A stretch of DNA of 64,000 nt, taken from a virus (lineage: Duplodnaviria > Caudoviricetes). Both the position numbers and the translations under genes were made by a program. The notes beneath the pieces are model-generated. The model was not told where the DNA came from. It searched no databases and worked only from the letters and a program-made list of their open reading frames with translations. Every line of letters starts with the position of its first letter. Within the stretch, counting starts at the first letter, position 1. Location of the stretch: positions 32,001 through 96,000 of IMG/VR virus record IMGVR_UViG_3300037067_022526. One strand, written 5' to 3'. Shown one piece after another: positions 9,401-43,439 of the stretch.

Positions 9401-12400
9401 AAAATTACTTATGCCGGTGTATTGTGTGGGAAGTTGAAACTTACACTTGGACATAAGGTCTTAACAGAAAAGAATGGTGAAATTAAATACGTTCAAGCTC
9501 AGGAATTACAAGTGGGTGATTATCTTCTTACTCCTTGTGGTTATGATGCTGAAGGTGAATGGGAAAATGGATTAGTTGATGATTTTGCATATCTTGTAGG
9601 TGTATACGCAGCAGAAGGCTGTGGTATGCCGTATGAACACATATCAAATAGAGGAAGAATTATAAGTTATTATAAGGGCGTTAAATTTGCCATATCACAA
9701 GAAGAACAGAGTTTTTGTGATACCATTGTGGAAAAAATAAAGATACTTTATGGTGATTGTAAGATTTCTTTAGTACCGGATAAAAATTCTAAAAAATTAG
9801 AAATTCGAGTATATGGCAGATCAATTGCAGATGATTTAATAGGTATTTGTCCAGGCACATCGAGTGATGGCACAAAAAGAATAATTCCACACATTATAAA
9901 AAACTGGAATGCCCGTCAAATGGCATCTTTCGTTTCTGGATTTTATGATGGCGATGGCTGTTATCAAAATAATGCTCCCACAGTTGGACTGGGTGTTTGC
10001 AAGCGATTACTTGAACAAGTAGCTAATATACTTGACAGGTTAGGCATAGAATATACATTTGCGAAAAGAAGACCGACTGGATTGGGAAGACAACAAGTTT
10101 ATATTGTGAGTATTCCTCGACGAGAAATGCCAAAGTTTACACACTTGTCAGCCAAAAAGATCATCTGGAACTCATATAATCAGCATTTCCGCCGCAATTG
10201 GTCAATATTCAAAAAAGGCAAGTATGTATATAGAGCGATAATAAAAATAGAGCAATCTCCATATGATGGTGCTCTGTATGATATGGAAGTTGAGAATGAC
10301 CACTCATATGTGGTAAACAGGATAAGCGTATCCAATAGTCGCTTTCCCATGAATGGCTTCAAACTTGAATGTAAAGATCCTAAAATACTCAAGTTTTTCG
10401 AGCATAAAGCAGCTAAGCGCCTAAGCCTTAACGAAAACTGCAAAATGATATCCAGTGAATGTCACATGCTGGGCGATGTATTCATACACATGGACGTTGA
10501 ATGTCCAGTGTGCCAAGGTATTGGGGTTAACCCAGATTCCGGTGAAATTTGCAACCATCCCGGAGGTAACTTTAAAAAGATGCGCATACTCAATCCAGAT
10601 TGGATTGAAGTGCAACAAAACATTATGGCAGATGAGCCAAGTATAGTTTTCGTACCCGACGAAGAGCTTAAACGTATAGTATTCTATAAACAACCTAAAA
10701 ACATATATGACAGAATACCTAATGCAATTAAATCTCTGGTGTTACAAAACAAACCTATCCCATTAAGCAACAGAACAACATCGCATTTGAAATATATGCC
10801 TGTGCCTTATGGCACTTATGGCACATCACTGATCAGAAGATTGTTCACTACTCTAGCTTATAAGACTAAAATTATGACTGCTAACTGGATAGTCGCCGAG
10901 CGATTGATTCTGCCAGTTCGTGTTGTGCAAATAGGTAGCGATGATAGACCAGCAACAAGTGCTGACATAGCCGATGTCCAGCAGCAATTAGCTGCAACTG
11001 CTAATGACCCTAATTTAACCATTGTGACCCACCATAACTTCAAGTACGAGTGGTACGGCGCTTGTCATGATGATCAGACAGAAGTTCTAACTGATACTGG
11101 ATTCAAGACTTATGACCAAGTTGATATCACAAAAGACAAGATTTGTATATACAATCTAGAAGAAAATAAGACAGAATGTATATACGCCACAGATAAATAT
11201 GTCTACGACTATGATGGTGAGATGATCCATTTCCACAATAGAAGACTAGATATATTAGTTACTCCAAATCATAAAATGCTATATCGATGGAGTAATAAAG
11301 ATTCATGGAAAACTGAGGAAGCATCTGAACTAAAATGTTCTACCAGATTGCTTGGAGCAGCAAAATTTGAGGGGTTTATTAAATCTGGTGGATCTATTTA
11401 TGCAAAAGAGGATAAGTATTACGTAAGAATAGGTGACAGCAGTATTGAATTGAGCAAATTCTGTAAATTTATTGGATATTACCTGTCAGAAGGAACATTG
11501 AATAACAAAAAGAGTAATTATCATGTAGCAATTTACCAGAATACCTCTAAAGAGTGCTTCTCTGATATCGAAGACACTATGAGTGATATGGGGTTCCATG
11601 TTACTGAGTATGCGGATAATCGAAATCCTGATGATTGCAGATTTATTATATCAAATAAGGAATTGGTAACATTTATTAATGAGCATTTTAAACATGGTTC
11701 ATTGAATAAAACCATTCCTAATTGGATTAAAAATTTGCCGCGGAATTATTTAAAGTTGATATTTAATTCTATGATTAATGGTGATGGATATAGGCATCCA
11801 ACTGTTAATACTGAGAGCTTTACTTATACGACTGTTTCTAAGTCTTTGGCTGATGATATACAAGAAATTGCTTTTAAGTGCGGTTATTCTACCTGCATTC
11901 GTAAAGCAAAGAAACCTGATTATAAATCATTCGGTAAAAATACAATATACAGAGTCCACATAAGCATGGGTAAATTCTCTAATGGCAGTTATCCAATTGT
12001 ACGAGAAAAAGATATTACCAGAGTTCCATATAAAGGTAAAGTATGGTGTTTCACAGTTCCTACTGGATTCTTTGTGACTCGCCGTAATGGTAAAATCACT
12101 ATCCAGGGTAACAGCGGCAAAATATTGCAAATAACTCAGGAAATGGAGTATATAGGTAAAGAAATACTCGACGGATTTATGCTAAACCAGTCACTACTGA
12201 ATGGGGAGATGTGTATTCCCGAAACTGACAAGATGTTAACAAAATCTGGATTAAAAAATCTTAATCAAATAGACAAAGATGATGAGATTGCGACATTCAA
12301 TAAAGAAACAGGGATGTTGGAATATCAAAAACCAACCGAGATTCATGTATACGACTGGAATGATGATCTGATTCATTTCCGGACCGATCGTATTGATTTT

Positions 12401-15400
12401 GCTTGTACGCCAAATCATCGAATGTTATATCAAAAAAGAGACAGCGATAAGTGGATTGTGGATACTGCAGATAAAGTATCTGATCGTGTCAAATTCCGAA
12501 AACGAGTTAATTGGTTGGGAGGTGAAGTCCCAGAAAATGTCATTGTTGGTGACAATGAGATTTCCGTAGATCAATATGTTGCCCTCATGGCATATTATGT
12601 AACCGAAGGATATACTCGCAAAGAGAGCAGAACCGCTCGCAAGACTTATAAACAGCCGATATCATTATGCGTATATCAATCTGTAAAAGGCAAGGGATAT
12701 AATGATGTTTGTGAGTTATTCGAATCTCTGCCATACAAATATTCTCATGACGAAAAACACGATTCATTTGCAATTCATAACAAAACATTAGCTATGTATC
12801 TACAAATGGAATGTGGAGATGGCAGTTATAATAAACACTTGCCGGATTGGGTAAAAGAATTGCCAAGACCGTATCTGCAGAAATTATTGCGACACATGAT
12901 TAATGGAGATGGTTCAATTAGAACAAGAGATCGAGGTGAGCCAAAACAATATTATGTGTATTATACTCGTAGTAGGCAATTAAATGCAGACATTCTAGAA
13001 GTTGCGTTAAAGTGTGGATATTGGCCGCGTTATCGATATAGCGAGAAGCGTGGGTATGAACTCGCATTTTCGGATTATGATCTTAACAAAGAAACTTTGC
13101 CGCTTGAATCCAAAAAGTATAAGACCATAACTCGTCTTCCATATAAAGGTAAAGTTTGGTGTGTTACTGTTCCTAATGGATTTATAATCACTGAACGAAA
13201 TGGTAAATTAAGCATCCATTCGAATTCGGGCTACCAAAGTGCTCAGGTTGGTGTTGAAACACTTATTCGACGTATTGAGTCCTGGAGACACACCCTAGCC
13301 GAATGGATACAAGAACGTATATTTAAACCCATAGCTGAAATGCAGGGATTTATTGATAACGAAGAGAGCGAAGAAATAGGAGAATTATCCTTTATATATC
13401 CTGAAATCAAATGGAATGATTTGAATCTAAAAGATAAAACTCAATACTTCCAATTGCTTAACCAATTGCATGACAAACAACTTATTTCTTCTCAAACCTT
13501 ATTAGAAGAGATGGATTTCAAATGGGATCAGGAAGTCAAGCGTATGCGATACGAGCAAGCACAAGCTGGTCCTATGGGTATGGGTGCGGGGCTGGGAGGC
13601 GCAGCCGGTGGTGCCGGTGGTATGCCTTTGGGCGGAGGCGGTGGAGGTGCTGGTGGTCCTCCAATGCCAGGCGAAGGTGCTCCAGGTATGGCAGGTGGCG
13701 TAGGTGGTATGGATATGGGCATGGGTGGTGGAGGTATGCCAGGTGCAATGCCTGCCACAGCAGGAGCTGGTGGCAAAATAATGAAGCCTGGCAAAGAGAA
13801 AAAATTTGAACAGCAGAAAACAGATGGACAAATGATGAATGCCATGCCTGTTAAACTAACAAGTATCGAGCAGAAGGTGGCCGATACCTTAGTTGGTTTA
13901 AGCCAGATGTATCGCATAAACCCGCAGAAAATAAGAGTTCAATTTCCAGTACAAAATCCTCACGGAGGCCCGCCTTATCAGCTAGATTTTGCATTGCCTG
14001 ATTTAAAACTTAATGTCGAGTGCTTATTACCTGGTGCTGTAATAGAAACAGATAATGGATACAAAAAAGTTGAGGATGTTTTATCATCAGATAAATTATT
14101 TGACAAATATGGCAAACATACTAAAATTGTGCATAAATTTGTTCAAGAATATGATGGGGAAGTTGCCAAAATTTGCGCTATAGGAATGTTTAATCTGGAT
14201 GTAACTTCATCGCACAAGTTGTGGATTTCTAAGCCCAAGAAAACCAGAGTAGTTCGCGATGAGCCCCGGATAACACGAACAAGAGAATATTTGCAACCGG
14301 ATATACCACAATTTATATGCGTTAAAGAAGCAGAAGTTGGTGACTATGTAATAATTCCTAAGCGAAAGACCAATAGCACTTCTCGCATTATAAACTTACA
14401 ACAATATATAACTAATAATTGTAAAAAGATTCCAGAGCAAATAAATCTTGATATTAAAACATCTAGATTGCTAGGGATCTATGTTGCTGAGGGATGTGCA
14501 TCTGATAGCGGCTCAATTGTATTTTCGTTTTCAGAAAATGAAAAGGATTACATTAATGAGACAGAAACATTGATGGATGAAATTTTTGGAATTAAATTAG
14601 GAAAGATTTATTTTGGAAAGGGAGCAGCGCGGGTATATTTTCAGAGCACTCCATTATCTAAGTTCTTCAATGAAGTATGTGGTAAGTATGCTAGAAATAA
14701 AAAAGTTCCTAGTATGATGTTTAATACCAGTGAAGAAAACATTAAATCCTTTATTCAAGGAGTGATGGATGGAGACGGGTGCATGCGGAATGAGTCGGAA
14801 TGGCGTATTCAGACATCTTCAAAATCATTAGCTTTGGGTATACAGCAACTTTGTGCTACTATTGGAATCTGGGCACCTATTGTTATTAGTAGGATTGATG
14901 GGACATATAATATTCGAGGGCGAAGTGGTATTCAACATTCGCTTTTTGAAATTACAATAAATTGGAATCCACGAAAGAGAAGATATCGCGAAGATGATGA
15001 TTATTTCTATATTCCAATTAGAAAAATAATATTTTCGTCATACAGTGGAATTAGATATAATTTCGAAACAGAAGACCATTCTTATTGTGTAAATAACATG
15101 GTTTCAAAAAATTGCGATGGTGACATATGGCACAGTAATCCTGAGCAGGCGTCCGATGATCAGAAACGAGATAATACTTTAGCCCAACGCGGATGGACTG
15201 TTTTACGGTTTGATGATAAGGCAATTGAAGAGACCCCACAAGCAGTGAGAAATACTATCGGTAAATTTATTAACGCGATTCTAGAAAGCAAAAAATCGAA
15301 AACTGCATCTACCGATGAATTTGGTGCTGCAAAGTTATATACTGCTAAATCAGGAGAGATCTATGATTTAAGGGACGAATATAATAAATTCGTTAAAACG

Positions 15401-31700: not shown

Positions 31701-32878
31701 TGCGAAAAAATTCATCAATAATTTTAAGAATTAGCCAAGAAGATAACTTGCTATTAGATGTTAAATCTAAAATACTTAAAACTAATAAGTCCCAACTGTT
31801 GTTAAATGGGGCATTTAATTATTGGAATGGTAGCGATAAAGAGTGGTCAGATAAGTTGCTTAAACTATACCAAGAGAGTGATACAAATAAATCCCACATA
31901 GTTAATATGGTATTCGCATACTATCGCAGAACAGGGTATCCTCACCGCAAATTATCTAATCAGGATATGATTAAAATTATGCACACTTTATCTTCCACTA
32001 AGAATCCACTGATAGGTAATGACCATTTGCAGACCAACAATGTGGGTATACCCGTAGCTAGTTGTTTCCACCCTCATATGATGAAAGTGCGATGCCTATC
32101 CAGGTATTTGTCTCCCTCAGAATTATATAATAACGACGAAAAGTTTAAAGACGCCATCAATCGTTGTTTTGAATTGGGTAACAAACCAAACGAAGCGAAT
32201 ATTCGCCGTATCCTCCGCACTCGTGACGGTGTCCGTAGTGCAGTTAATTTTAAGCCAGTTATAGCTAAATATATTTATCAGAACTATGCCCCCACCGGAG
32301 GTAAGGTCCTCGACCCTTGCGCTGGCTACGGTGGCAGACTAACCGGACTTATCTCTACTAATAAAAACCTTCTCTATCACGGTATAGACCCCTGCCCAGA
32401 GACCACAGTGGGTAACACCCAACTAGCAGCCTTCTATTCCCGCCTATACGAACCCATAACTAAAGAATTGCAGTGGAAGTTTAGGTTTCGTCACGATTTA
32501 GGTTGCGCAGAGGATGTCTTGCCCACTTTGCCAGATAAAGAATATGATTTGGTCTTTACTTCGCCACCTTATTTTAATGTAGAACAATATGACACTTTGC
32601 CTAATCAGAGCTACCTCAGATATCCTGATTATGAGTCCTGGCGGGATAAATTCTTATCTGTTTTAATCAAAGAATCTTGCCGGGTCTCCAAGCAGTATGT
32701 AGTATTAAATGTTAAAAACTATAAGAGCTATCCGATAGCAGACGATGCTCTAAAGTTTGCGGAGCAAATGGGATATGGAATACATAAGACTTACCAAATG
32801 AGATTAGCCAATAGCGAATTTCACAGAAGAGAGAGTGAACCGACATATCATGTTGAACCTATTTATGTGTTGTTGTGA
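31697..32878 (+). CDS. Amino-DNA methyltransferase (N4-C or N6-A) with possible N-terminal RHH-like segment
   Basis: Motif I VLDPCAGYGG and motif IV FTSPPYF. Confidence 0.85.
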   Translation: MMRKNSSIILRISQEDNLLLDVKSKILKTNKSQLLLNGAFNYWNGSDKEWSDKLLKLYQESDTNKSHIVNMVFAYYRRTGYPHRKLSNQDMIKIMHTLSSTKNPLIGNDHLQTNNVGIPVASCFHPHMMKVRCLSRYLSPSELYNNDEKFKDAINRCFELGNKPNEANIRRILRTRDGVRSAVNFKPVIAKYIYQNYAPTGGKVLDPCAGYGGRLTGLISTNKNLLYHGIDPCPETTVGNTQLAAFYSRLYEPITKELQWKFRFRHDLGCAEDVLPTLPDKEYDLVFTSPPYFNVEQYDTLPNQSYLRYPDYESWRDKFLSVLIKESCRVSKQYVVLNVKNYKSYPIADDALKFAEQMGYGIHKTYQMRLANSEFHRRESEPTYHVEPIYVLL

Positions 32879-33239
32879 TTCACTCCCCTCCCCTTCATAG
32901 AGGAGAATCACCGATAATTGGGTGTTACCCACTACGGTTTCGTTGCAATTCACTCCCCTTTTCAGGGGAGAAACACCGTGGCATAAGGAGAAACAGCAGT
33001 GGCAAAGGTTGCAATTCACTCCCCTTTTCAGGGGAGAAACACCATTGGCGCATTGTTCTGTTGCCATGTCGTTGTTGCAATTCACTCCCCTTTTCAGGGG
33101 AGAAACACCCATCGAGTGATGTAGCGGTGAAAGCGTCGGTTGCAATTCACTCCCCTTTTCAGGGGAGAAACACCTTTATCTTTGCTGCTGCGTGGCCGTG
33201 GCCGTTGCAATTCACTCCCCTTTTCAGGGGAGAAACACC
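32872..33239 (-). CRISPR. CRISPR array 1: five identical 36-bp repeats plus one degenerate terminal repeat, five spacers of 29-30 bp
   Basis: + strand repeat GTTGCAATTCACTCCCCTTTTCAGGGGAGAAACACC at 32942, 33008, 33074, 33139, 33204; degenerate copy 32872-32912. Confidence 0.97.
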
Positions 33240-33350
33240 CGAGCACTCATAACTTGATATAATTCAGCACCTTATGAGTATTCAGGGTCACAAATTTTGA
33301 GTCGCCCAATTCACTTTTCAAAGAACACTTCCCATTTTCTACGAATTCTC
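33240..33350 (-). promoter_or_regulatory. CRISPR leader 1
   Basis: Near-duplicate of 36162-36275; contains the inverted repeat ACTCATAA/TTATGAGT. Confidence 0.75.
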
Positions 33351-33380
33351 AGTATATTGTACTTGCTCTGCTGCTAAAAG

Positions 33381-35687
33381 TCAAATCAATTCTTCCATGT
33401 ATCCCAAAAATTCAGTATCGTATTTTCCTGACCACACACACATTCCAGGTATTTTTTCATAGGGTTTAGTATAGTTTAAAATCGTTTTAATATTGCCTTC
33501 GAAAATTTGTACACTATTTCTAACTATATCTGTCGATGTTGGATATTCGATATTATCTATGTTTTCTGGTTTAACTATAACAGTTATTTTATTATTAGGT
33601 ATAACCTGATAAATGTCACCAACATCTTTCATGTATTTTTTTTGTTCAAAGCTCATTAAGCTCCCGATTGTAACAACTTTGTTATTTAAATTGCCAACTA
33701 CATTAAGATTGCCTATTTCATCTTCCATTGCTTCTGCGCAATGTTCTGGTCCTATTTTTCCGAGAGCGTAATATTCTCGAAAAATTTTTGCTCCATCTCT
33801 GAATTCTTTGTTTTCAGTAAAATCATCTAAATCTAACTCGAAAACGTATAGTGTGGAATCATTAAAGACATTATCTCGATTGATTCGACCAGCCAATTGC
33901 AAAGCACTATTTAAATTGCAGTTTTCTCTGAAACCATTTCTGAAAGAAATGTTTATTCCAGATTCTATGCACGATGTTGCAATTAATATGAAATTCTCAT
34001 CGGAACTTAATCGTGATTTGATATCTTCTAATATGACCTCTCGATCTGTAGCACAAAGTGCTGTGGACATGTGTAATACATGTTCACGCCCAATTATCTT
34101 TGATATTGTTTTTGCAACCAATGCTGCGTTTTTGACAGTGTTAAAAACCGCTACTACCGGACCTTTGCTGCGCTCATTTATAACAGCATTACAAATTTGG
34201 GGTAAAGATAGTTTATTCCAATGCCCGTTATCTTGTATGCCGCCTAATTGCTTTATTGTAACTCTGGATTTTTCTTGTTTAAGAGTTATCTCTGAAATCT
34301 CTGGTGGAACTATAGATGGGACATTATAATCAAAACCATCTAAGACATATTTTCTAAATCGCTTGATTTCCCAAGGCTTCGTCATAGACCCAGACACAAA
34401 CAGTACTCGGCATCCCATATTTTCAACTAACCATTTTAAGTAATATAATGTAAGTGGCCACAATTTTGAGGGCAGGCAACAATGAGACTCGTCAAAAATA
34501 ATGAATTTACCGGCTAAATTGAGATACTTTCTAAGCTTTTTAGGTGTGTATCCAGCCAAAGTTTCACAAAATTGTACTGCGGTTGTGCAGGTAATTGGAC
34601 AATTCCATGTCTGTGTATAAAGTTTTGCGGATAGATCATGTTCAAAATCTACTCCAAGATGATGCTCTGCAACGGTTAATTTATCATCTTCTTCGGGCAA
34701 AACAATTGCTTTTCTATAAGTGTCTGCAGTTTGGCTAATAATATTAGTATAAGGTGCAACATAAATTATACCTGACATATTATTAGTATTAACAGTATGT
34801 AAAGCATATGCCAAAGATGATAAAGTTTTGCCATTACCAACTTCACTAGCAAGATATGTAAATGATGCGGAAATTTCTGAATGTCTACACGATTGATATA
34901 TAGCTTGCCTTATTTTGTTCCTCTCGGTTTCTGCTGAAAAGCTACTAACATATTTATCTAGTTGTAGTAATCTTTCATTTGCTTTTATTGGGATTGTGTC
35001 TTCTACTATGAAGTTCTTGTAATTTTTAGCAGTGTCATAGTAGTCTGCTGTTACGAGTACGCTTAATGCTAATCTTGATAGTGGAGCACTAATATTCTTG
35101 TTATAATTCATTCCGCTTTTCAGAGGAGAAACACTTAGGGGTTCAACTAAATTTATTTCTTTTTTATGAAGTTCCATTAGCTTGTCTAATTTTGCATCGA
35201 CATATTCGCTCATGAGCATGTCTGTTTCTTTTACCCACGGACATCTTTCCCCTAGTAAATTATTATCTCGAAGGTCATCGTATAGATTTTTTTGGTATCC
35301 GAGATGATGAGCGAAAACAAGCCATGCTGCGTACCTATATTGATCTGATAAAGACATGTTCCCGTTTTGTGCTGCCTTGTCACATTGACTTATCAGATAA
35401 GACACACCGGCATCAACATGATTTGGCATTTTACAATTTAATACTTTACCACTTAAAACCATTTGACAATAAGGATCAAGCTTCCCTGTGTCATGGTACA
35501 AAATTGCGGTTAATAAATGACATTTTAGAAAATTATAATGATCTTCTGATATGAATGATTTTAATTTTTCTATTTCTTGCTCTGCTTTTAAGTATACACC
35601 AGATATATGATCAATAAAAGATTGTTCTGGAATGTTTCTTTCCAAATCTGCTGAATGGGCTAAGTTACAATTCACTCTACTTTTCAT
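33381..35687 (-). CDS. cas3: Cas3 HD nuclease-helicase
   Basis: AHS...H...YHDTGK HD domain; VGNGKT; IFDESH; ATSCIESGINI; QLAGRINR. Confidence 0.93.
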   Translation of the reverse strand: MKSRVNCNLAHSADLERNIPEQSFIDHISGVYLKAEQEIEKLKSFISEDHYNFLKCHLLTAILYHDTGKLDPYCQMVLSGKVLNCKMPNHVDAGVSYLISQCDKAAQNGNMSLSDQYRYAAWLVFAHHLGYQKNLYDDLRDNNLLGERCPWVKETDMLMSEYVDAKLDKLMELHKKEINLVEPLSVSPLKSGMNYNKNISAPLSRLALSVLVTADYYDTAKNYKNFIVEDTIPIKANERLLQLDKYVSSFSAETERNKIRQAIYQSCRHSEISASFTYLASEVGNGKTLSSLAYALHTVNTNNMSGIIYVAPYTNIISQTADTYRKAIVLPEEDDKLTVAEHHLGVDFEHDLSAKLYTQTWNCPITCTTAVQFCETLAGYTPKKLRKYLNLAGKFIIFDESHCCLPSKLWPLTLYYLKWLVENMGCRVLFVSGSMTKPWEIKRFRKYVLDGFDYNVPSIVPPEISEITLKQEKSRVTIKQLGGIQDNGHWNKLSLPQICNAVINERSKGPVVAVFNTVKNAALVAKTISKIIGREHVLHMSTALCATDREVILEDIKSRLSSDENFILIATSCIESGINISFRNGFRENCNLNSALQLAGRINRDNVFNDSTLYVFELDLDDFTENKEFRDGAKIFREYYALGKIGPEHCAEAMEDEIGNLNVVGNLNNKVVTIGSLMSFEQKKYMKDVGDIYQVIPNNKITVIVKPENIDNIEYPTSTDIVRNSVQIFEGNIKTILNYTKPYEKIPGMCVWSGKYDTEFLGYMEELI

Positions 35688-36161
35688 GGAAGAAACACCT
35701 CAATAGTAAGACTTTCAGTTGTAATTCACTCCACTTTTCAAAAGGGGAGAAACACCACGCCCGCCGATCTTTCCGCCGTCGGTTCCGTTACAATTCACTC
35801 TCTTTTTTCAGGAGAGAAACATCAAGTGTCAGCGTCATGTTGCAAGTCTTTCAAAAAATTAGTTGTAATTCACTCCCCCTTTCGGGGGAGAAACACCTCG
35901 TGATTTATGTTACCTATGCACTCGGCGGTTGCAATTCACTCCCCCTTTCGGGGGAGAAACACCTATACCCGAGTGGGGTACAGAAGTTGGCGTGTTGCAA
36001 TTCACTCCCCCTTTCGGGGGAGAAACACCCCCGCTCGTATAACATACCGTAACTGCCAGGTTGCAATTCACTCCCCCTTTCGGGGGAGAAACACCCGTCC
36101 TGAGAATCAAGCAATGCTAGGTCTAGTTGCAATTCACTCCCCCTTTCGGGGGAGAAACACC
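35664..36161 (-). CRISPR. CRISPR array 2: five canonical and three degenerate repeats
   Basis: GTTGCAATTCACTCCCCCTTTCGGGGGAGAAACACC at 35928, 35994, 36060, 36126 (one-base variant at 35862); degenerate copies at 35664, 35718, 35787. Confidence 0.95.
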
Positions 36162-36275
36162 CGAGCACTCATAACTTGGTATAATTCAACACTTTATGAG
36201 TGTTTAGGGTCACAAATTTTGAGATATTTGGTTTACTTTTCAAAGAACGCCTCTCGTTTTTTGCGAATTCTAGCT
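36162..36275 (-). promoter_or_regulatory. CRISPR leader 2
   Basis: Homologous to leader 1; IHF-like ATTCAACACTTTA. Confidence 0.7.
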
Positions 36276-37250
36276 CAGATCATGTACTTCAAAACTGAAT
36301 CCACATTCCGCAGCATTGGGTACATTGTAATCACTTAGACATATTGGTTTGTCGTTTTTTGCAGTAGGCTTAAGATTATTTATAAATTCAGTTTCTTTGA
36401 AACTTCCAATAGTATTAGAATGGTCTGCCCACCAAACATGTTGTAAATTCATCGAACCCGATGGACGTGCACACGAAGACGATGTTTCGAAAATATGTGG
36501 TAGTATTTTCTTAAGAATATCAATATCTTCTTGGGCAGCATTGGTCAGATGGGCACAATGCGGGTTGACGGAAATTAGTTGATAATACATGCCGTGACGA
36601 ATAAATTTTAGCGCATTTGGACCTATATCTCCAGAAGGATCTTTATCTTTGATCGTTCTTCCTGTATCTGTTGCCAGATGATCTGCGCTTAATGGCGACT
36701 TTTTTGTAACACTTGCCTCGATAATTTCCACTGGCGCAATTGAACACCCGACACCAATCGAAACACATCCAGTACGAACAAATCGAGGTTCTTCTTTCTT
36801 TTCCTTCTCTAGCCCATCTGGTAGAGCTGTTGTTCCGAAAATCCTGACATCAAAATATCGATTTAAAAAGGCTTCAGGGTCAGACTTGGCTAGCGCCATT
36901 GCTTTTCTGGCACATTCAAGCTCTGATGTTCCAGCGTACCCTTTGTTGCGGCTTTCAAATACATACAATCGTTCAGGGTCAAGATTGTCTCTCTTTACAA
37001 AATCCTTGAAAACCGGATTATCATGATCGGACAAGAAATCCCTGATCTTCCTTTTAATAGACATTGGTGATACCCACCCATATCCATCTGGAAATGTGCG
37101 TGGAGCATTTCCTACATCCGGGTCTCCGTTGGGATTTCCACAAATTACTTCATACACTAGCATTCCAACACTGCGATTCAATTGATACATTTTTTTCTCC
37201 AAAGTTGAATTTTCTGTTACGATCGTTTCTGATTTAATTGACTTATTCAT
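36270..37250 (-). CDS. cas7: Cas7 (Csd2, type I-C)
   Basis: GNPNGDPD...NAPR, SIKRKIRD, YFDVRIFG; start moved to ATG 37250 behind a GGAG RBS. Confidence 0.93.
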   Translation of the reverse strand: MNKSIKSETIVTENSTLEKKMYQLNRSVGMLVYEVICGNPNGDPDVGNAPRTFPDGYGWVSPMSIKRKIRDFLSDHDNPVFKDFVKRDNLDPERLYVFESRNKGYAGTSELECARKAMALAKSDPEAFLNRYFDVRIFGTTALPDGLEKEKKEEPRFVRTGCVSIGVGCSIAPVEIIEASVTKKSPLSADHLATDTGRTIKDKDPSGDIGPNALKFIRHGMYYQLISVNPHCAHLTNAAQEDIDILKKILPHIFETSSSCARPSGSMNLQHVWWADHSNTIGSFKETEFINNLKPTAKNDKPICLSDYNVPNAAECGFSFEVHDLS

Positions 37251-37716
37251 TGTTTTCTCCATTCGGATTTTCCACAGACACTTTTTCAAGATCAACACCG
37301 ATCTCTGACTTGACTGATTTTGGCGACCTATAAGCATATCCCATTTCCAGGAGTATTTTATAAATATCAGGATCAAACTCATTAAATTGGTTAACGCTCT
37401 TAAATTGATTATTATGTAAATCAGGCATTATATTCATAAGTTTACTAATTATTTCTTTATATTCTCTGATTGGCAAATAACCATGTTTATATGGCTCTTT
37501 TTCTTTGCGAATATAATTTTCTGCCCAACATTCGTACTTAGAAAAGTTTCCTATAAATGTTCCTAGCGCTCGTTTTGGAAATTTATATGCTTGCTGTATA
37601 TATTCTTGTCCGATAAGCTTTTGAGGTTCATTTATCCCTCTACTCTTAAAATATATTCGGTGAATATTGTTTGCTTGACTAAATAATTGTCCCATTAAAA
37701 ACGGCACACTGTTCAT
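37243..37716 (-). CDS. cas11: Cas11c, translated internally in frame from cas8c
   Basis: Internal AAGGAG-N6-ATG just before NSVPFLMGQLF, the arrangement known for type I-C. Confidence 0.65.
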   Translation of the reverse strand: MNSVPFLMGQLFSQANNIHRIYFKSRGINEPQKLIGQEYIQQAYKFPKRALGTFIGNFSKYECWAENYIRKEKEPYKHGYLPIREYKEIISKLMNIMPDLHNNQFKSVNQFNEFDPDIYKILLEMGYAYRSPKSVKSEIGVDLEKVSVENPNGENNE

Positions 37717-39186
37717 GATCATCTCCTTTGTAAAACCATTTTTACTCAAAACAATCCCCGAAATTGGCACCAGCCATTGCCGTTCATACGGCATTTTTTC
37801 TAATTTACCATCAGAACACTCAATTAGCATTTTGGTATGATTTTTTGCAAATATGCGAGTAACTTTTTTAATTGCTTTTTCGTTTTCGAAAAAGAAGTCG
37901 TATATATCTGAAATTGTTATATACTCTCGCTCTATAATAGATGATATTTTATTACGATCATTTTTCCATATTTTATTAATACATTTAGAAAAATTAGAAA
38001 TAGTTGGCGGGAGAAATTTGCCTTTGCAAACAAATTTAGACGGACGAGTTGATGTTCCGGATACCCATTTGTTTACACAATTAGCAATATTTTTTCCATT
38101 CATTTCTTTATGATATTTAATTTGACACGCACCATTTTTGGGTATAAATAGGACAAAAATTGAACATTGAAATGGTGTTTTATTAATCTCACCGTTTAAC
38201 ATGTGAACAATCTTTTTGCCCTCTGCCTCCCATTGTTCAATATCCATTTGGTTGGATTCTTCTGTTCGACCCTCAATCCAGTCAGATGAAGGTGATAGAG
38301 TAGTAATAACCAAATCTCTTCCGTTGTCTTTTTGGATATAATACCAGAGACCATTTCGAGTGCCTTCTTTTCCTAAATTGTTATAATAAAAATTCTCAGA
38401 TACAATAGAATTGATGATTTTCAGTATTTGTTTGCGAGTAGAATTTCCGATTTTGCACGCATTTACACCAGACATGCCAAATCGTTCATAGCATTCATTA
38501 TCCTCATTTTTAGAATAAAGTTTTATTGTGCCGACGCCGCAAGGGAGCTTGGTTTCAAATGTTTTTGATTTATTTTCCCACCCATCGGCAGGATTGTTGA
38601 GTATGTCGATATCGATAGATGAGTTTGTTTGTTTAGAAATAAGCCAATCATTCACCACCTTCATTGACTCACTATTTTGAACCTTATTGGAAAATTTTAA
38701 TTGTTTCCAATCTGGAATGTCTAGAGAAAAATAACAACTTTTGATCTTTTTATCTTGTTGTGAAATAAAGTCATCTAATTTGTTCATTAAAGCATTTGGA
38801 TCAATTCGAGATAATCTATTGGATAATTCTTTGAAAGCACAAAACCTATCTTGATCATCTATATGTTTAGATATATCGGAATGGCAATATAAATGATGTT
38901 TAATTCCATTCAGTCTTTTCTTAGAATCTTTATTAGTGTCATATTTGAAAGTAAATCCAGATGCAAAATTAGAGTATTTAAAATATCTAAGATCGGAAGC
39001 AGACTCAGACTCAAAAGGTTCGATAGCGATATCAAGATTCTTATCAATTAATATAAGAAAACGTTGACCGTTATTATTTTTGGGCATTTGTGGATGCCAC
39101 GTTGTATCGTTTGTGTTTGATAAATCCCCAATATTCAGACCCCAGCTTTTTAAACTTTCTTCAATTGATAATATTTCATGCAACAT
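37243..39186 (-). CDS. cas8c: Divergent Cas8c large subunit
   Basis: Position between cas5 and cas7; 647 aa; C-terminal PFLMGQLFS helical domain. Confidence 0.7.
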   Translation of the reverse strand: MLHEILSIEESLKSWGLNIGDLSNTNDTTWHPQMPKNNNGQRFLILIDKNLDIAIEPFESESASDLRYFKYSNFASGFTFKYDTNKDSKKRLNGIKHHLYCHSDISKHIDDQDRFCAFKELSNRLSRIDPNALMNKLDDFISQQDKKIKSCYFSLDIPDWKQLKFSNKVQNSESMKVVNDWLISKQTNSSIDIDILNNPADGWENKSKTFETKLPCGVGTIKLYSKNEDNECYERFGMSGVNACKIGNSTRKQILKIINSIVSENFYYNNLGKEGTRNGLWYYIQKDNGRDLVITTLSPSSDWIEGRTEESNQMDIEQWEAEGKKIVHMLNGEINKTPFQCSIFVLFIPKNGACQIKYHKEMNGKNIANCVNKWVSGTSTRPSKFVCKGKFLPPTISNFSKCINKIWKNDRNKISSIIEREYITISDIYDFFFENEKAIKKVTRIFAKNHTKMLIECSDGKLEKMPYERQWLVPISGIVLSKNGFTKEMIMNSVPFLMGQLFSQANNIHRIYFKSRGINEPQKLIGQEYIQQAYKFPKRALGTFIGNFSKYECWAENYIRKEKEPYKHGYLPIREYKEIISKLMNIMPDLHNNQFKSVNQFNEFDPDIYKILLEMGYAYRSPKSVKSEIGVDLEKVSVENPNGENNE

Positions 39187-39203
39187 TTTTAATCTCCATT
39201 TAA

Positions 39204-39887
39204 TTATTTATTTAAATTTTCGTTTTCAAACTTTAGAATTCCATTGGCTGCGATTACTTTCTCGGGACCAAGTTGTAAAATTCCATGAGCGATTCGCAAA
39301 GTTTCTGTTATTGGAAATTGCATAATATATCCATTTTTTTTGTCAAAATATTGTAGGACATATCCGTGTAAAATTTCATTATAATCAGAAATTATGGGAG
39401 TTATAGGTAATCCGACATAATCAGAAAAAAAGTCGCTCGGACCAAGTGTCGGCATTCGATAATATTGTTCTTTACTTAATCGACGATAAAATTGATCGCG
39501 ATATGAATGGGCACAATTAATATGTGCGTATTTTGGGTGAGGTGGTTCTACGGTAGACCTTTTGGCGGTTGCACAAATTTGAAATCTAGGGCGAAGCAAA
39601 GCTGTAGCTTTTATTTGACATGCATTTCCATCTCTTTTCTGTCCTTCTTTTCGAATTGATGACCACGAATTAAAAGCATAATCTAAATATTCTGGTCGGT
39701 GACATATCCCGATAGCTTCTATTTGTATGGATGCACTTTTAACTCTTAAAATTGACTGCATTATACCAAATGCCGCAGTGGGCGTAGGAACTGGATAACT
39801 ACATGGTTCTGATCCGCTATCAGGTCTGGCGAACATGCCTATGGGTCCGCCAACCTCGAATATGATTCCGTAAGATTTCTGGTACAT
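39204..39887 (-). CDS. cas5: Cas5 (Cas5d-like, type I-C)
   Basis: FEVGGPIGMFARPD...SYPVPTPTAAFGIMQSI; AAGGAG RBS before ATG 39887. Confidence 0.9.
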   Translation of the reverse strand: MYQKSYGIIFEVGGPIGMFARPDSGSEPCSYPVPTPTAAFGIMQSILRVKSASIQIEAIGICHRPEYLDYAFNSWSSIRKEGQKRDGNACQIKATALLRPRFQICATAKRSTVEPPHPKYAHINCAHSYRDQFYRRLSKEQYYRMPTLGPSDFFSDYVGLPITPIISDYNEILHGYVLQYFDKKNGYIMQFPITETLRIAHGILQLGPEKVIAANGILKFENENLNK

Positions 39888-39906
39888 TCTGAATCTCCTT
39901 TCAAAC

Positions 39907-39935
39907 AATTATAACCTTAGCGTGATGGGAAGTCA
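39907..39935 (-). promoter_or_regulatory. sigma70-type promoter of the cas operon
   Basis: TTGACT-N17-TATAAT on the minus strand. Confidence 0.8.
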
Positions 39936-39973
39936 AGCGAGAGATATTAGATTTTTTAAAAATATTCGTGGCC

Positions 39974-40002
39974 TTGACAATTTACGTAGCAGGCAATATA
40001 AT
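39974..40002 (+). promoter_or_regulatory. Consensus sigma70 promoter, divergent from the cas promoter
   Basis: TTGACA-N17-TATAAT. Confidence 0.85.
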
Positions 40003-40011
40003 GGATTGTAA

Positions 40012-40046
40012 GATGTTTCTCCCCTAAAAAGGGAGTGAATTGCAAC
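40012..40046 (+). repeat. Solitary CRISPR repeat
   Basis: GATGTTTCTCCCCTAAAAAGGGAGTGAATTGCAAC, in crRNA-sense orientation. Confidence 0.9.
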
Positions 40047-40068
40047 GTGATGATGTCGAGGAAATCAG

Positions 40069-40353
40069 ATGTGGAATTTGACAGAACACGCAAAACCGGT
40101 CACCGGAGAAGAATCTTTAGTAATTTATACTTGTCCGCAATTTCTTGAGGACGAACATCCTGGTATATATTACATACACGAAGCATACTGTATACACAAT
40201 GGTTTCTGTCGTTATTACCCGGATGAAGGTTGGTTCTGTGGGGATAATAAAATGCCAGAACCCGTAGCGTGGATCCGTCCCGAAAAATTGTTAGAGTATT
40301 TTTTGACGCAACTACCCAGCAAAGATCAGTCAGCTACAACACCTTTCAGATAA
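40069..40353 (+). CDS. Hypothetical protein, paralog of 45268..45519
   Basis: MWNLTEHAKPV...WFCGD.KMPEP.AW.RPEKLLE shared with the paralog. Confidence 0.75.
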   Translation: MWNLTEHAKPVTGEESLVIYTCPQFLEDEHPGIYYIHEAYCIHNGFCRYYPDEGWFCGDNKMPEPVAWIRPEKLLEYFLTQLPSKDQSATTPFR

Positions 40354-41252
40354 TCAGATATCGCAGTCCTGATGATATCTACGTAAGAAATTTCACAGTC
40401 ATTTTCATATGCTTGCTTGCGGGCAACTCTTTTTAATTGTTCTAATTGATCACTCAAAATTCGGATGCTGATTGTGATATTCTCAACGACATTTTGAAAT
40501 TTCGACCCAAATTCACATCCGAAATCGCCATCAGACATATGTTGGTTTTCTTGCCGCAGCATCTCTTCGGTATAATCGGTATTCACTTCCCATGTGGGTA
40601 GTTGGCATATCAACCTGTAATCAGGTGCAGTTGAAATTAAATTATATAATAAATCGCCTTTGCGCCTTGGTGACGAGACTATAATAGTTCGTGATTCATG
40701 CACTCCGTCATGTTTGAAGTCGGCAGTGCTGGGAATCAATGCATTATAAATTCTATCACCCGACTGCCCTGGAAATGACGCGATCTCATTGAATACAAGA
40801 GTGAAATATCGCTTGCCCAGGAGATTTGAACTATTGGCGTGAGCAACCATTAAACAAATGTATCCTGATCGATTCCGCCTTGGCAACCAAATTTTGTTCT
40901 GCTCTATTTTGGTTATCTCATCTCGAAAATACTCAGATCGAGTAACAAGCAGTTTCAACTCCGTGAAGAAAGATCTTGCCTCCTCTGCACTATTACAAAC
41001 AGCAAGCTGATAAATCGTGTCCTGGTTTGGGATATTATAATATTCAAACGGATTTGGTATTTCTAATAGTCGCCGTGTCTCTGCCAGTAGCAGCAGTGTA
41101 GCAAGATAATCCTTTCCGCTACGTCTTCCCAAAACGGCAACTAACTCTCGGTATTGTCCAATATAGAAGTTGGACATGATTTCTTTTAACCTCGGATATA
41201 ACTTAATGTTAGGTGTAATTAAATATTGCTCGATAAATTCCATTGAAGTCAT
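40326..41252 (-). CDS. Terminase large-subunit ATPase-like domain fused to a C-terminal ribbon-helix-helix
   Basis: GRRSGKD Walker A; LVFNEIASF Walker B variant; IVSSP motif III; LPTWEVN; EFGSKF; then TISIRI...YVDIIRTAISDYL; start ATG 41252 behind AAGGAG. Confidence 0.75.
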   Translation of the reverse strand: MTSMEFIEQYLITPNIKLYPRLKEIMSNFYIGQYRELVAVLGRRSGKDYLATLLLLAETRRLLEIPNPFEYYNIPNQDTIYQLAVCNSAEEARSFFTELKLLVTRSEYFRDEITKIEQNKIWLPRRNRSGYICLMVAHANSSNLLGKRYFTLVFNEIASFPGQSGDRIYNALIPSTADFKHDGVHESRTIIVSSPRRKGDLLYNLISTAPDYRLICQLPTWEVNTDYTEEMLRQENQHMSDGDFGCEFGSKFQNVVENITISIRILSDQLEQLKRVARKQAYENDCEISYVDIIRTAISDYLKGVVAD

Positions 41253-41357
41253 AAAAAGCTCCTTTCTACTAATACTTACTTCGCTGTCATAATTATTTCC
41301 TGTAAGAATTATGACAAAATTTACCACATAATACATTATACAGCGCAGGAGATGTGG

Positions 41358-41583
41358 AATGTTTCTTCAATGAAGTGAATTGCAACTTGACAACTCCCAC
41401 AGCCAGCAGTATAATGAGCCGTAAGATGTTTCTCTTTTGAAAAGAGGAGTGAATTACACAACATGGTAGTGTGGATTTTACTCATCAATGCCATACTTTG
41501 TGCATTATTCTTCTTTTTCGGCGTTTTCTGCGGATGGAGTTTAAGCTCGGATATAGATGTTTCTCCCCTGAAAAGGGGAGTGA
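41358..41583 (+). repeat. Cluster of three degenerate CRISPR repeats with an embedded promoter
   Basis: Copies at 41358-41386, 41425-41462 and 41556-41583. Confidence 0.8.
41387..41415 (+). promoter_or_regulatory. Consensus sigma70 promoter
   Basis: TTGACA-N17-TATAAT. Confidence 0.85.
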
Positions 41584-41840
41584 TAAAAAATCATATTGCT
41601 GCCGGACAGAAGGGTGCAGAGCTTTTGCGTAATAAATTTGGACTTATTAATATAGAAACCAGATCGGAAAGATACCCCGAGTCCCAAAGTATATCTCCGC
41701 AAAAGGCCCTAGATTTATTAAATGTATCTTGTGTTTGGATATCCAAACCATCTCTTAATGTTGTCATAGAGACATCGACAGGGAATTACCGAGTGAGATT
41801 CAGTGAATTTGACCGATACTTTTTATGCGGAGACAAATAA
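41463..41840 (+). CDS. Hypothetical protein with N-terminal transmembrane helix
   Basis: Hydrophobic N-terminus; RBS supplied by a repeat; contains a repeat fragment. Confidence 0.5.
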   Translation: MVVWILLINAILCALFFFFGVFCGWSLSSDIDVSPLKRGVIKNHIAAGQKGAELLRNKFGLINIETRSERYPESQSISPQKALDLLNVSCVWISKPSLNVVIETSTGNYRVRFSEFDRYFLCGDK

Positions 41841-41842
41841 AC

Positions 41843-42055
41843 ATGACCGAACAAGAGATGAAAATTGCTTTAGAGTGGGTTAAAGAATCCGAAAATACTA
41901 ATGAATATTGCGAGCGTAATCTTTTAATTGACGCCCTAAGACAATTAGAATTTGACCCGCCTGATATAAATAAAGCACAGCAAAGACTTCGAGAATTAAT
42001 TCCGTTAGGTGAACCTTATCATTTAGTTATTCCGCCTGATTTTGTGAAGGAATGA
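41843..42055 (+). CDS. Hypothetical protein
   Basis: GGAG RBS before MTEQEM. Confidence 0.55.
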   Translation: MTEQEMKIALEWVKESENTNEYCERNLLIDALRQLEFDPPDINKAQQRLRELIPLGEPYHLVIPPDFVKE

Positions 42056-42386: not shown

Positions 42387-43439
42387 GTGTTAATTGAAAT
42401 TGATTCAAAACTAAGTGCCCCACATGATCATTTGCCCACTGTTAATGCCTTAGATGCAATTAAAGCCAAAGTTACGGGGTATCATGTTGAATGCCATTCA
42501 GAGATGGGTAAACTTGTAGGCAAGAAATCTCGTGGTTCTACAAAATCCACTGTTCCATTCAATATGCACGGATTATTTGGTGCAATGTTGAGGGCATATT
42601 ATGACCACCGTAAATTAATTATCTCTCCAGATATGATTTGGAATACTATTGTTCAGGGTTTATCTTTGCATGTGTTTATGAATCCAGAAGATATGCGTAG
42701 TAAATTTGTAAAACATCAAGATAAAATAACCCTTAAAGTGCGGCGAGATGATTTCGTCAAAGGTGGTGTTAATCCTTGGCCAGAAGTTTTTGAAACATTC
42801 AACTCGTTGATTGCAGAGCACATCGGAGATCGAGCGCAACAACTCGTGCCCAATTTTTCCACAACTGGCCAATTAGAAAGAGCAATTCACCATGTTGCTT
42901 TAATGGACTCAGTTCAATCTTATTTTAAGTTTGAGGTCTATACACTCTGCGGTATACCATTTGTTGAACTTGAAGGCACGAGAGAAGACTGGAATAACTT
43001 GAATGAGCGAGCCAAATCTCTAAGCGACATAATTCCGGCGTGGTGGAAGGATCCGCTATTAGAAACATGTCAGACTTTTTATGATGCAGCATGCGGTAAA
43101 GTTGACATTAAACAGTGGAAATCTATATTTAAAGAAGAATCAATTGGAAGTGGCAGTCCAGAAATTACGGGATGGGCTTTAAATTTATGTCCATATTTAT
43201 ACGACAGATACGGTAAAACACATTATCCGAATCCCAATCTCGTCGGTGGTAGGTCATATATTACTTCTGAGAATTTGCCAAGTGGTGTATCACAAGTGCC
43301 ATTTGAGTGGTTTTATTATGAGCAAGTGTTTCACATGCAATTTGTTGGTGGATTTATGGGTATAATTGAGAACGATGACTTTTCTGTTCGTCCACAATTT
43401 GGATGGGCCATTGTTGAATCGGAAGAAGGATTGCTTTAA
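42387..43439 (+). CDS. DUF4419-family protein
   Basis: AYYDHRKLIISPDMIW, PNFSTT and CGIPFVELEGTREDW motifs. Confidence 0.75.
   Translation: MLIEIDSKLSAPHDHLPTVNALDAIKAKVTGYHVECHSEMGKLVGKKSRGSTKSTVPFNMHGLFGAMLRAYYDHRKLIISPDMIWNTIVQGLSLHVFMNPEDMRSKFVKHQDKITLKVRRDDFVKGGVNPWPEVFETFNSLIAEHIGDRAQQLVPNFSTTGQLERAIHHVALMDSVQSYFKFEVYTLCGIPFVELEGTREDWNNLNERAKSLSDIIPAWWKDPLLETCQTFYDAACGKVDIKQWKSIFKEESIGSGSPEITGWALNLCPYLYDRYGKTHYPNPNLVGGRSYITSENLPSGVSQVPFEWFYYEQVFHMQFVGGFMGIIENDDFSVRPQFGWAIVESEEGLL

Follow-up and report, generated by a model that had tools for sequence, protein, structure and literature searches.

A type I-C CRISPR locus with associated cas genes was analysed in the genome of a tailed phage, the IMG/VR virus record IMGVR_UViG_3300037067_022526 of 137,762 bp. 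The window, the whole stretch of 64,000 nt that was analysed, comprises bases 32001-96000 of this record; coordinates refer to the window unless stated otherwise. On sequence evidence the locus probably works as a CRISPR-Cas interference module; it belongs to a distinct branch of type I-C that is mostly phage-borne. Intact genes for Cas5c, Cas8c with an internal Cas11c start, Cas7c and an HD-helicase Cas3 lie behind a near-consensus promoter, and two leader-preceded arrays have a hairpin repeat in common, the last 11 nt of which resemble the I-C 5' handle. IMG/VR classes the record as one with inverted terminal repeats, the completeness was 100 % (CheckV), and PHROG matches, to a head maturation protease and to further phage families, are as expected of a tailed phage. 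Between 32872 and 39936 the order on the minus strand is cas5-cas8 (with the internal cas11 start)-cas7-leader and array 2-cas3-leader and array 1, with the following features:

39908-39936, minus strand: cas operon promoter (TTGACT, 17 nt, TATAAT), in agreement with the consensus at 11 of 12 positions; ribosome-binding site and ATG of cas5 follow about 20 nt downstream
39204-39887, minus strand: cas5c, 227 residues, presumed endonuclease for the CRISPR RNA (crRNA) precursor (PADLOC, Pfam, solved relatives)
37243-39186, minus strand: cas8c, large subunit, 647 residues (PADLOC; AlphaFold2 model compared with PDB)
37243-37716, minus strand: internal cas11c frame within cas8, 157 residues (ribosome-binding site and ATG; profile match)
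36270-37250, minus strand: cas7c, backbone subunit, 326 residues (Pfam, PADLOC, Cas7 tree)
36162-36271, minus strand: leader of array 2, about 110 nt, duplicate of the array 1 leader
35862-36161, minus strand: regular part of array 2, five 36-nt repeats (C-G stem variant) and four 30-nt spacers
35664-35861, minus strand: decayed trailer of array 2, three degenerate repeats, the last holding the cas3 ATG
33381-35687, minus strand: cas3, 768 residues, HD nuclease fused to a superfamily 2 (SF2) helicase (PADLOC, NCBIfam, motifs)
35100-35135, minus strand: repeat-derived in-frame insertion within cas3, 30 of 35 positions identical to the repeat
33240-33349, minus strand: leader of array 1, duplicate of the array 2 leader
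32872-33239, minus strand: array 1, five identical 36-nt repeats (U-A stem variant), a degenerate terminal copy and five spacers

All four proteins had their best matches to type I-C among the PADLOC subtype models (Cas5c 4.3e-12, Cas8c 8.6e-44, Cas7c 7e-40, Cas3c 2e-91). Cas5 matched Pfam Cas_Cas5d (2.1e-5), and its best solved relatives were all I-C Cas5c (8g9t_N 3e-6, 3vzi, 8dex, 7kha). Cas8 was modelled with AlphaFold2 from an alignment of 31 relatives (predicted local distance difference test, pLDDT, 82; predicted template modelling score, pTM, 0.74); the ten best PDB matches of the model were all Cas8c chains of the Desulfovibrio vulgaris and Neisseria lactamica I-C Cascades (8dfs_I 3.9e-9, 8g9t_K 6e-8). 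Within cas8 the motif AAGGAG is followed after 6 nt by an ATG at codon 491, and from this internal start a Cas11c small subunit of 157 residues is predicted. An equivalent start with ribosome-binding site was present in four of five Cas8 relatives examined, and the Cas8 family profile matches the solved Cas11c chains 7kha_K and 9jhb_B over this part; the Cas11c of D. vulgaris corresponds to residues 489-612 of its Cas8c (PMC7684278). Cas7 matched Pfam Cas_Cas7 (7e-42) and reached 129.5 bits with NCBIfam cas_Csd2, under the cut-off of 182. Cas3 was recognized by NCBIfam cas3_HD and cas3_core, and its HD histidines and aspartate, GxGKT and DESH were invariant among four clade members. Pfam families of Cas1, Cas2 and Cas4 were without any match across the whole record, as were the Pfam Cas6 families; the Cas5, of the Cas5c/Cas5d kind, is presumed to do the work of Cas6.

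By its predicted protein content the locus is type I-C, by gene order and missing adaptation module it is not a canonical operon. Canonical type I-C operons are arranged cas3-cas5-cas8-cas7-cas4-cas1-cas2, with repeats of about 32 nt and spacers of 33-35 nt. Here, in contrast, cas3 stands after cas7 and not before cas5, an array separates cas7 from cas3, cas4-cas1-cas2 are lacking, the repeat has 36 nt with a 7-nt tail before the hairpin, the spacers have 29-30 nt and the proteins score under the curated NCBIfam cut-offs. In agreement with the canonical systems of D. vulgaris and N. lactamica (PDB 7KHA, 8DEX, 8G9T; PMC7684278) are Cas5c as presumed processing enzyme without Cas6, the Cas8c fold, the internal Cas11c start near residue 490, a Csd2-type Cas7, a single HD-helicase Cas3 and a hairpin repeat with an 11-nt handle at its end, the sequence of which is almost unchanged. 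A preliminary description of the window had proposed a divergent, interference-only I-C variant on a phage, in the order cas5-cas8-cas7-array-cas3-array and without cas1, cas2 or cas4 in the window. The gene calls reproduced this order, all on the minus strand; the PADLOC models, the structural matches of Cas8 to I-C Cas8c only and the lack of adaptation genes support the variant, and the Pfam searches extended their absence to the complete genome, no cas1 or cas2 being found elsewhere on the contig.

Array 1 comprises five identical 36-nt repeats with starts at 33204, 33139, 33074, 33008 and 32942, a degenerate terminal copy of 41 nt at 32872-32912, and spacers of 29, 29, 30, 30 and 29 nt. 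Array 2 has five 36-nt repeats at 36126, 36060, 35994, 35928 and 35862 with four 30-nt spacers, then a decayed tail of copies at 35787, 35718 and 35664 with intervals of 38, 30 and 18 nt; the preliminary description is to be complemented in that array 2 has no clean end and its last degenerate repeat holds the cas3 start codon. The coordinates thus agree with the repeats of 36 bp and spacers of 29-30 bp described before, and the alignment of the leaders bore out their duplication: 98 nt, comprising the leader-proximal repeat and adjoining leader, were 93 % identical, a further 40 nt 83 %. A weak promoter-like site is common to both leaders, and a further promoter-like site (33384-33356, 10 of 12 positions) overlaps the cas3 stop. 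Adjoining the first repeat, both leaders (33241-33300 and 36162-36222) also contain a conserved inverted repeat of 8-9 bp with a 19-nt loop; read on the plus strand, this loop shows an extended -10-like motif, from which transcription would be antisense to cas3 and cas7.

Read in the direction of the crRNA, the repeat is composed of a 7-nt tail, a 7-bp stem with a GAAA loop followed by the other stem half, and 11 nt at the 3' end. Exactly two positions distinguish the two repeat variants, the closing U-A pair being replaced by C-G, as the preliminary description had seen; the predicted folds have -15.7 kcal/mol for array 2 and -13.7 kcal/mol for array 1. Since compensatory stem changes occur between the two arrays of the window and also in two related loci, L001 and L008, the hairpin is supported. 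Rfam contained no CRISPR repeat family or other RNA family matching 32500-42000. Hairpin and handle belong to the I-C kind. Two positions of the 11-nt 3' end are different in two relatives with canonical 32-nt repeats, L012 and L014, and the extra repeat length therefore lies entirely in the tail, which separates guide and hairpin. With 65-66 nt the unit period is the same as in L014 (32 + 34) and close to that of L012 (32 + 32), so that it is as in canonical arrays, and the distance from handle to hairpin is 36-37 nt (7 + 29/30) compared with 34-36 nt (2 + 32/34) in L012 and L014.

From these components the following course of interference would be expected. Transcripts from the cas promoter and the leaders would run through the arrays, and Cas5c would cut at the 3' base of each 7-bp GAAA hairpin, leaving the 11-nt handle on the crRNA. 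Copies of Cas7 would coat the guide of 29-30 nt, while Cas8c and two Cas11c would complete Cascade. On matching DNA next to a protospacer-adjacent motif (PAM), Cas3 would be recruited and shred the target, likely a rival phage or other mobile DNA that shares the host. Should spacers still be gained, an integrase supplied in trans would have to write them.

The nearest relative of Cas7 was 43 % identical. A HMMER scan with Cas8 retrieved 252 cluster representatives at E <=0.001, 32 of them at E <=1e-30; in IMG/VR no relatives were found with Cas7 alone, with a three-sequence Cas7 alignment or with the neighbouring 393-residue protein. Eleven loci were inspected: all had cas5-cas8-cas7, followed by an array and/or cas3 where the contig continues, and none had cas4-cas1-cas2 next to cas7. 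A phage-like content was seen on the long contigs (216 kb, 141 kb, 37 kb and several of 22-37 kb), which encode homing endonucleases, sigma factors and proteins of nucleotide metabolism besides small genes without a name. The lineage of L003 has the same cas7-array-cas3-array layout as the window. One locus, L002, was 100 % identical to the window and was for this reason dropped as evidence on array turnover. In a Cas7 tree of 28 rows, from which five weaker Cas7 matches were left out and which was rooted at the midpoint for drawing only, the loci formed a clade of 13 rows on a long branch with 100/100 support, the window locus among them, apart from the rows that their source names type I-C Csd2. 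Protein identity within the clade is 25-45 %, and the architecture is kept throughout. The locus is a member of a distinct, widespread, mostly phage-borne branch of type I-C.

The arrays of the clade vary in their geometry (repeat + spacer, in nt). A pattern of 36 + 29-30 was present in the window, L001 and L008, 32 + 32 in L012, 32 + 34 in L014, and 36 + 36-40 in L016, which has 21 regular repeats; L011 begins with 36 + 36 and changes to 30 + 32, and L003 and L015 are irregular. The 36-nt tailed repeat is a clade trait, and spacer length is specific for the lineage. As L011 and L016 pair 36-nt repeats with spacers of 36-40 nt, the long repeat is not tied to short spacers. No ordinary bacterial I-C locus with the geometry of the window appeared among the homologs; the two other 36 + 30 loci, L001 and L008, are neither of them ordinary bacterial I-C loci. 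In L001 the first repeat overlaps the end of cas7 (11020-11070 of that locus), with the stop codon in the hairpin loop; the array has no leader and must therefore be transcribed with the cas genes. L003 and L005, at about 12700-13650, represent the same related phage and differ by an internal replacement of about 190 nt and by four extra units at the cas3 end; given the great unevenness of their repeats and spacer lengths, recombination seems a likelier cause than ordered acquisition.

The strict pattern of the window repeat had zero matches in 185,579 species genomes (one genome per species) and in IMG/VR, thus no bacterial array with this repeat was detected among the species genomes. A looser handle-gap-start pattern revealed one real array in metagenomes, L008; its matches in one Clostridia metagenome-assembled genome and three metagenome contigs lay by chance in a coding gene and were rejected. 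The derived C-G repeat variant is found at the five leader-proximal positions of array 2 and nowhere else; all older, degenerate and solitary copies keep U-A. This is the distribution that addition at the leader end after a mutation would produce. The arrays of the L003 phage differ between samples. Both observations are signs that the arrays are not frozen. Writing of spacers in trans by borrowed integrases would fit the leader-end variant and the lineage-specific spacer lengths.

The ten regular spacers have a mean G+C content of 52.5 %, compared with 38.5 % for the phage, a mean that ten random 30-nt stretches of the genome reach with a frequency of about 5e-5. Because their G+C content is so far above that of the phage, most spacers should originate from other DNA. 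BLAST comparison of both arrays to 50,697 GenBank phage records gave nothing usable, the single match (E=0.4) being judged a chance event, and exact 23-nt cores of three spacers were not present in IMG/VR. The oldest spacer of array 1 has a partial match in the adjacent 393-residue gene (32399-32427, plus strand), identical at 24 of 29 positions with an exact core of 16 nt, where shuffled spacers reached at best 18-20; no other regular spacer had a standout match in the phage genome. Of the five mismatches, three fall within guide positions 1-8, and the match is flanked 5' by CCA. The canonical type I-C PAM is 5'-TTC. The simplest reading derives the spacer from this gene as present in a related phage, and rivalry between phages would agree with such an origin; an alternative is self-acquisition followed by escape mutations.

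Copies of the repeat are also present outside the arrays. The cas3 start codon lies in the loop of the degenerate repeat at 35664-35699 (minus strand), which has lost its hairpin (-1.2 kcal/mol), and Cas3 has five extra N-terminal residues read from this repeat that homologues lack. The in-frame insertion at 35100-35135 coincides with a 9-residue insertion absent from three homologues; its hairpin is weakened (-5.4 kcal/mol). It is placed between the HD and helicase parts, so that two repeat copies, 564 nt apart, enclose the segment coding for HD. On the plus strand are three or four sense-oriented solitary units (40012-40046, 41360-41384, 41424-41458 and 41555-41583), whose stems keep their pairing by compensatory and wobble changes. 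Two of them are situated directly behind perfect TTGACA-17-TATAAT promoters, ahead of genes for 94 and 125 residues, the latter membrane-like. The unit at 40012-40046, divergent from cas5, is repeat-like with an intact 11-nt handle and has its promoter at 39974-40002 (TTGACA, 17 nt, TATAAT); one solitary unit lies inside the 125-residue gene and has no handle. The sequences following the solitary repeats showed no partial match to the cas promoter or elsewhere in the genome, and as a guide-like match is lacking there, a circuit of the CreR/CreTA type is not claimed. The repeat copies suggest that Cas5c or Cascade may act on phage messages too.

Several results weigh against a working module. 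The residues of Cas5 at the published positions of the Cas5d catalytic triad were not confidently alignable. Cas8 had no match in Pfam and NCBIfam, Pfam Cas_Csd1 matching only distant Cas8 relatives, and Cas5, Cas7 and Cas3 stayed under the curated NCBIfam cut-offs. The arrays are short, with 9-10 usable spacers, and array 2 decays into cas3. An exact protospacer was not found, neither in GenBank phages for all spacers nor in IMG/VR for three cores nor in the phage's own genome, and without adaptation genes, which the complete genome does not appear to contain, the arrays could be frozen relics. The short arrays, the degenerate trailer of array 2, the lack of adaptation genes and the failure to find targets in these searches would all suit an inactive locus whose arrays were inherited from an ancestor with adaptation genes and are now decaying. 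We consider such a relic very improbable, since all four reading frames are intact with conserved motifs, the cas operon promoter is near consensus, ten repeats are perfectly conserved and a deep clade, with protein identities of 25-45 %, preserves the architecture; moreover, a related phage has different arrays in different samples, and 21 regular repeats are present in one relative. The repeat-bearing transcripts invite another explanation, that the module mainly regulates the phage's own genes, with Cas5c or Cascade binding or cutting the cas3 message and the messages of the two neighbour genes preceded by solitary repeats. It draws on the cas3 start codon in a degenerate repeat, on the second repeat-derived insertion in frame and on the solitary units on the other strand between 40012 and 41583, two of them directly behind perfect promoters. 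As the principal function this is unlikely: Cas3 retains all nuclease and helicase motifs, the regular spacers have no match in the phage genome except the one at 24/29, the sequences downstream of the solitary units have no partial target in the genome, and a cas3 start embedded in a repeat was not seen in the relatives examined.

The guide of the window is 4-5 nt shorter than usual, and the preliminary description had deduced a shorter Cascade from it. Canonical I-C Cascade contains seven Cas7 (PMC7684278). A Cascade with one Cas7 less, six and not seven, combined with arrays filled by a host adaptation module of another type that writes 36 + 30 units, e.g., of class 2, is a tentative and on the whole doubtful explanation, yet it deserves more credit than a regulatory module or a relic. 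The tight spacer length of 29-30 nt suggests a ruler-type integrase, the geometry recurs in L001 and L008, the same effector architecture is combined with spacers of 30, 32-34 or 36-40 nt depending on the lineage, and the derived repeat variant is restricted to the leader end of array 2; a precedent for acquisition in trans is type IV-A3 with type I-E machinery, as cited in PMC11656645. On the other hand, no arrays with the window repeat were found in the 185,579 species genomes or in IMG/VR, handle and hairpin are as far apart as in the canonical arrays L012 and L014, which would still leave room for seven Cas7, and the 36-nt repeat occurs with spacers of 36-40 nt as well. A shorter Cascade is therefore no more than possible, the 7-nt tail restoring the handle-to-hairpin distance and other clade members combining the long repeat with long spacers; the sequence alone would agree with six as well as with seven Cas7. 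That the longer repeat tail offsets the shorter spacer and Cascade keeps seven Cas7 is an alternative, weakened by L011 and L016. More speculatively, and with a low probability in our estimate, the phage branch of I-C may have dropped its adaptation genes and had its arrays written by the integrase of the current host, while the repeat became a general RNA tag by which Cas5c or Cascade controls the dosage of Cas3 and accessory genes. An integrase borrowed from the current host would explain why near-identical effector architectures have spacers of 30, 32-34 and 36-40 nt. The reading as a working interference module is the one we prefer.

Some observations in the surroundings of the locus are added. 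Between the two promoter-repeat cassettes lies a gene for 336 residues (40326-41336, minus strand) without a match in the Pfam copy used; a precomputed match assigns PF27249 (MJ0330_N). About 2.3 kb past the window end, at 98335-98405 of the genome (plus strand), a solitary 32-nt repeat of canonical I-C style, unlike the phage's own, starts a few bases after a TTGACT-17-TATAAT promoter. This repeat may be an RNA anti-CRISPR against an I-C system of the host. A DUF4419 protein is encoded at 42387-43439 (plus strand); its closest named homologues, with 37-45 % identity, include hemichordate animals, Planctomycetota and Myxococcota, an unusual distribution for a phage gene. Since homologues of this protein occur in many phyla, even in animals, they gave no pointer to the host.

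Phage systems without adaptation genes, including an I-C variant, are already known and were published in 2020 (PMC7162821). Like these systems, the locus described here has effectors and array in a phage genome without Cas1, Cas2 and Cas4. The huge-phage I-C variant of Al-Shayeb et al. 2020 (PMC7162821) is described as lacking Cas6, with a Cas5d-like Cas5 and another helicase replacing Cas3. The window locus resembles it in being phage-borne, in the lack of Cas1/Cas2 and of Cas6 and in the Cas5d-like Cas5, but has, unlike the variant by its description, a true Cas3 with HD domain and resides in a genome of 138 kb, under the 200-kb huge-phage class. CRISPR systems are rare in phages below 200 kb according to a review (PMC11656645). 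By the account in this review, the type I-F system of Vibrio phage ICP1 (Seed et al. 2013) is likewise a phage-encoded type I weapon with Cas3 and arrays, but differs in subtype, in having its own adaptation module and in its known targets on the PLE island of the host. The plasmid type IV-A3 (Benz et al. 2024), as cited there, is also a system of a mobile element without adaptation genes, and its arrays grow nevertheless; it differs in type, in the use of DinG and not Cas3, and in its known donor, a I-E module. With class 2 arrays (type II or VI-B) only the 36 + 30 geometry agrees, whereas the adjacent effectors of the window are type I-C. The locus is marked by its true Cas3, the non-canonical gene order throughout the clade, the two leader-array copies flanking cas3 and the 36 + 30 array.

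The phage I-C variant of 2020 thus appears as one aspect of a branch that is deep and recurrent, has a gene order of its own and reaches phages well below 200 kb. As the same effector is combined with guides of 30-40 nt, the clade is a natural series useful for how the length of Cascade is set, and it offers a test case for spacer acquisition in trans. The compact four-gene I-C module with its strong promoter is a candidate for Cas3-based editing tools.

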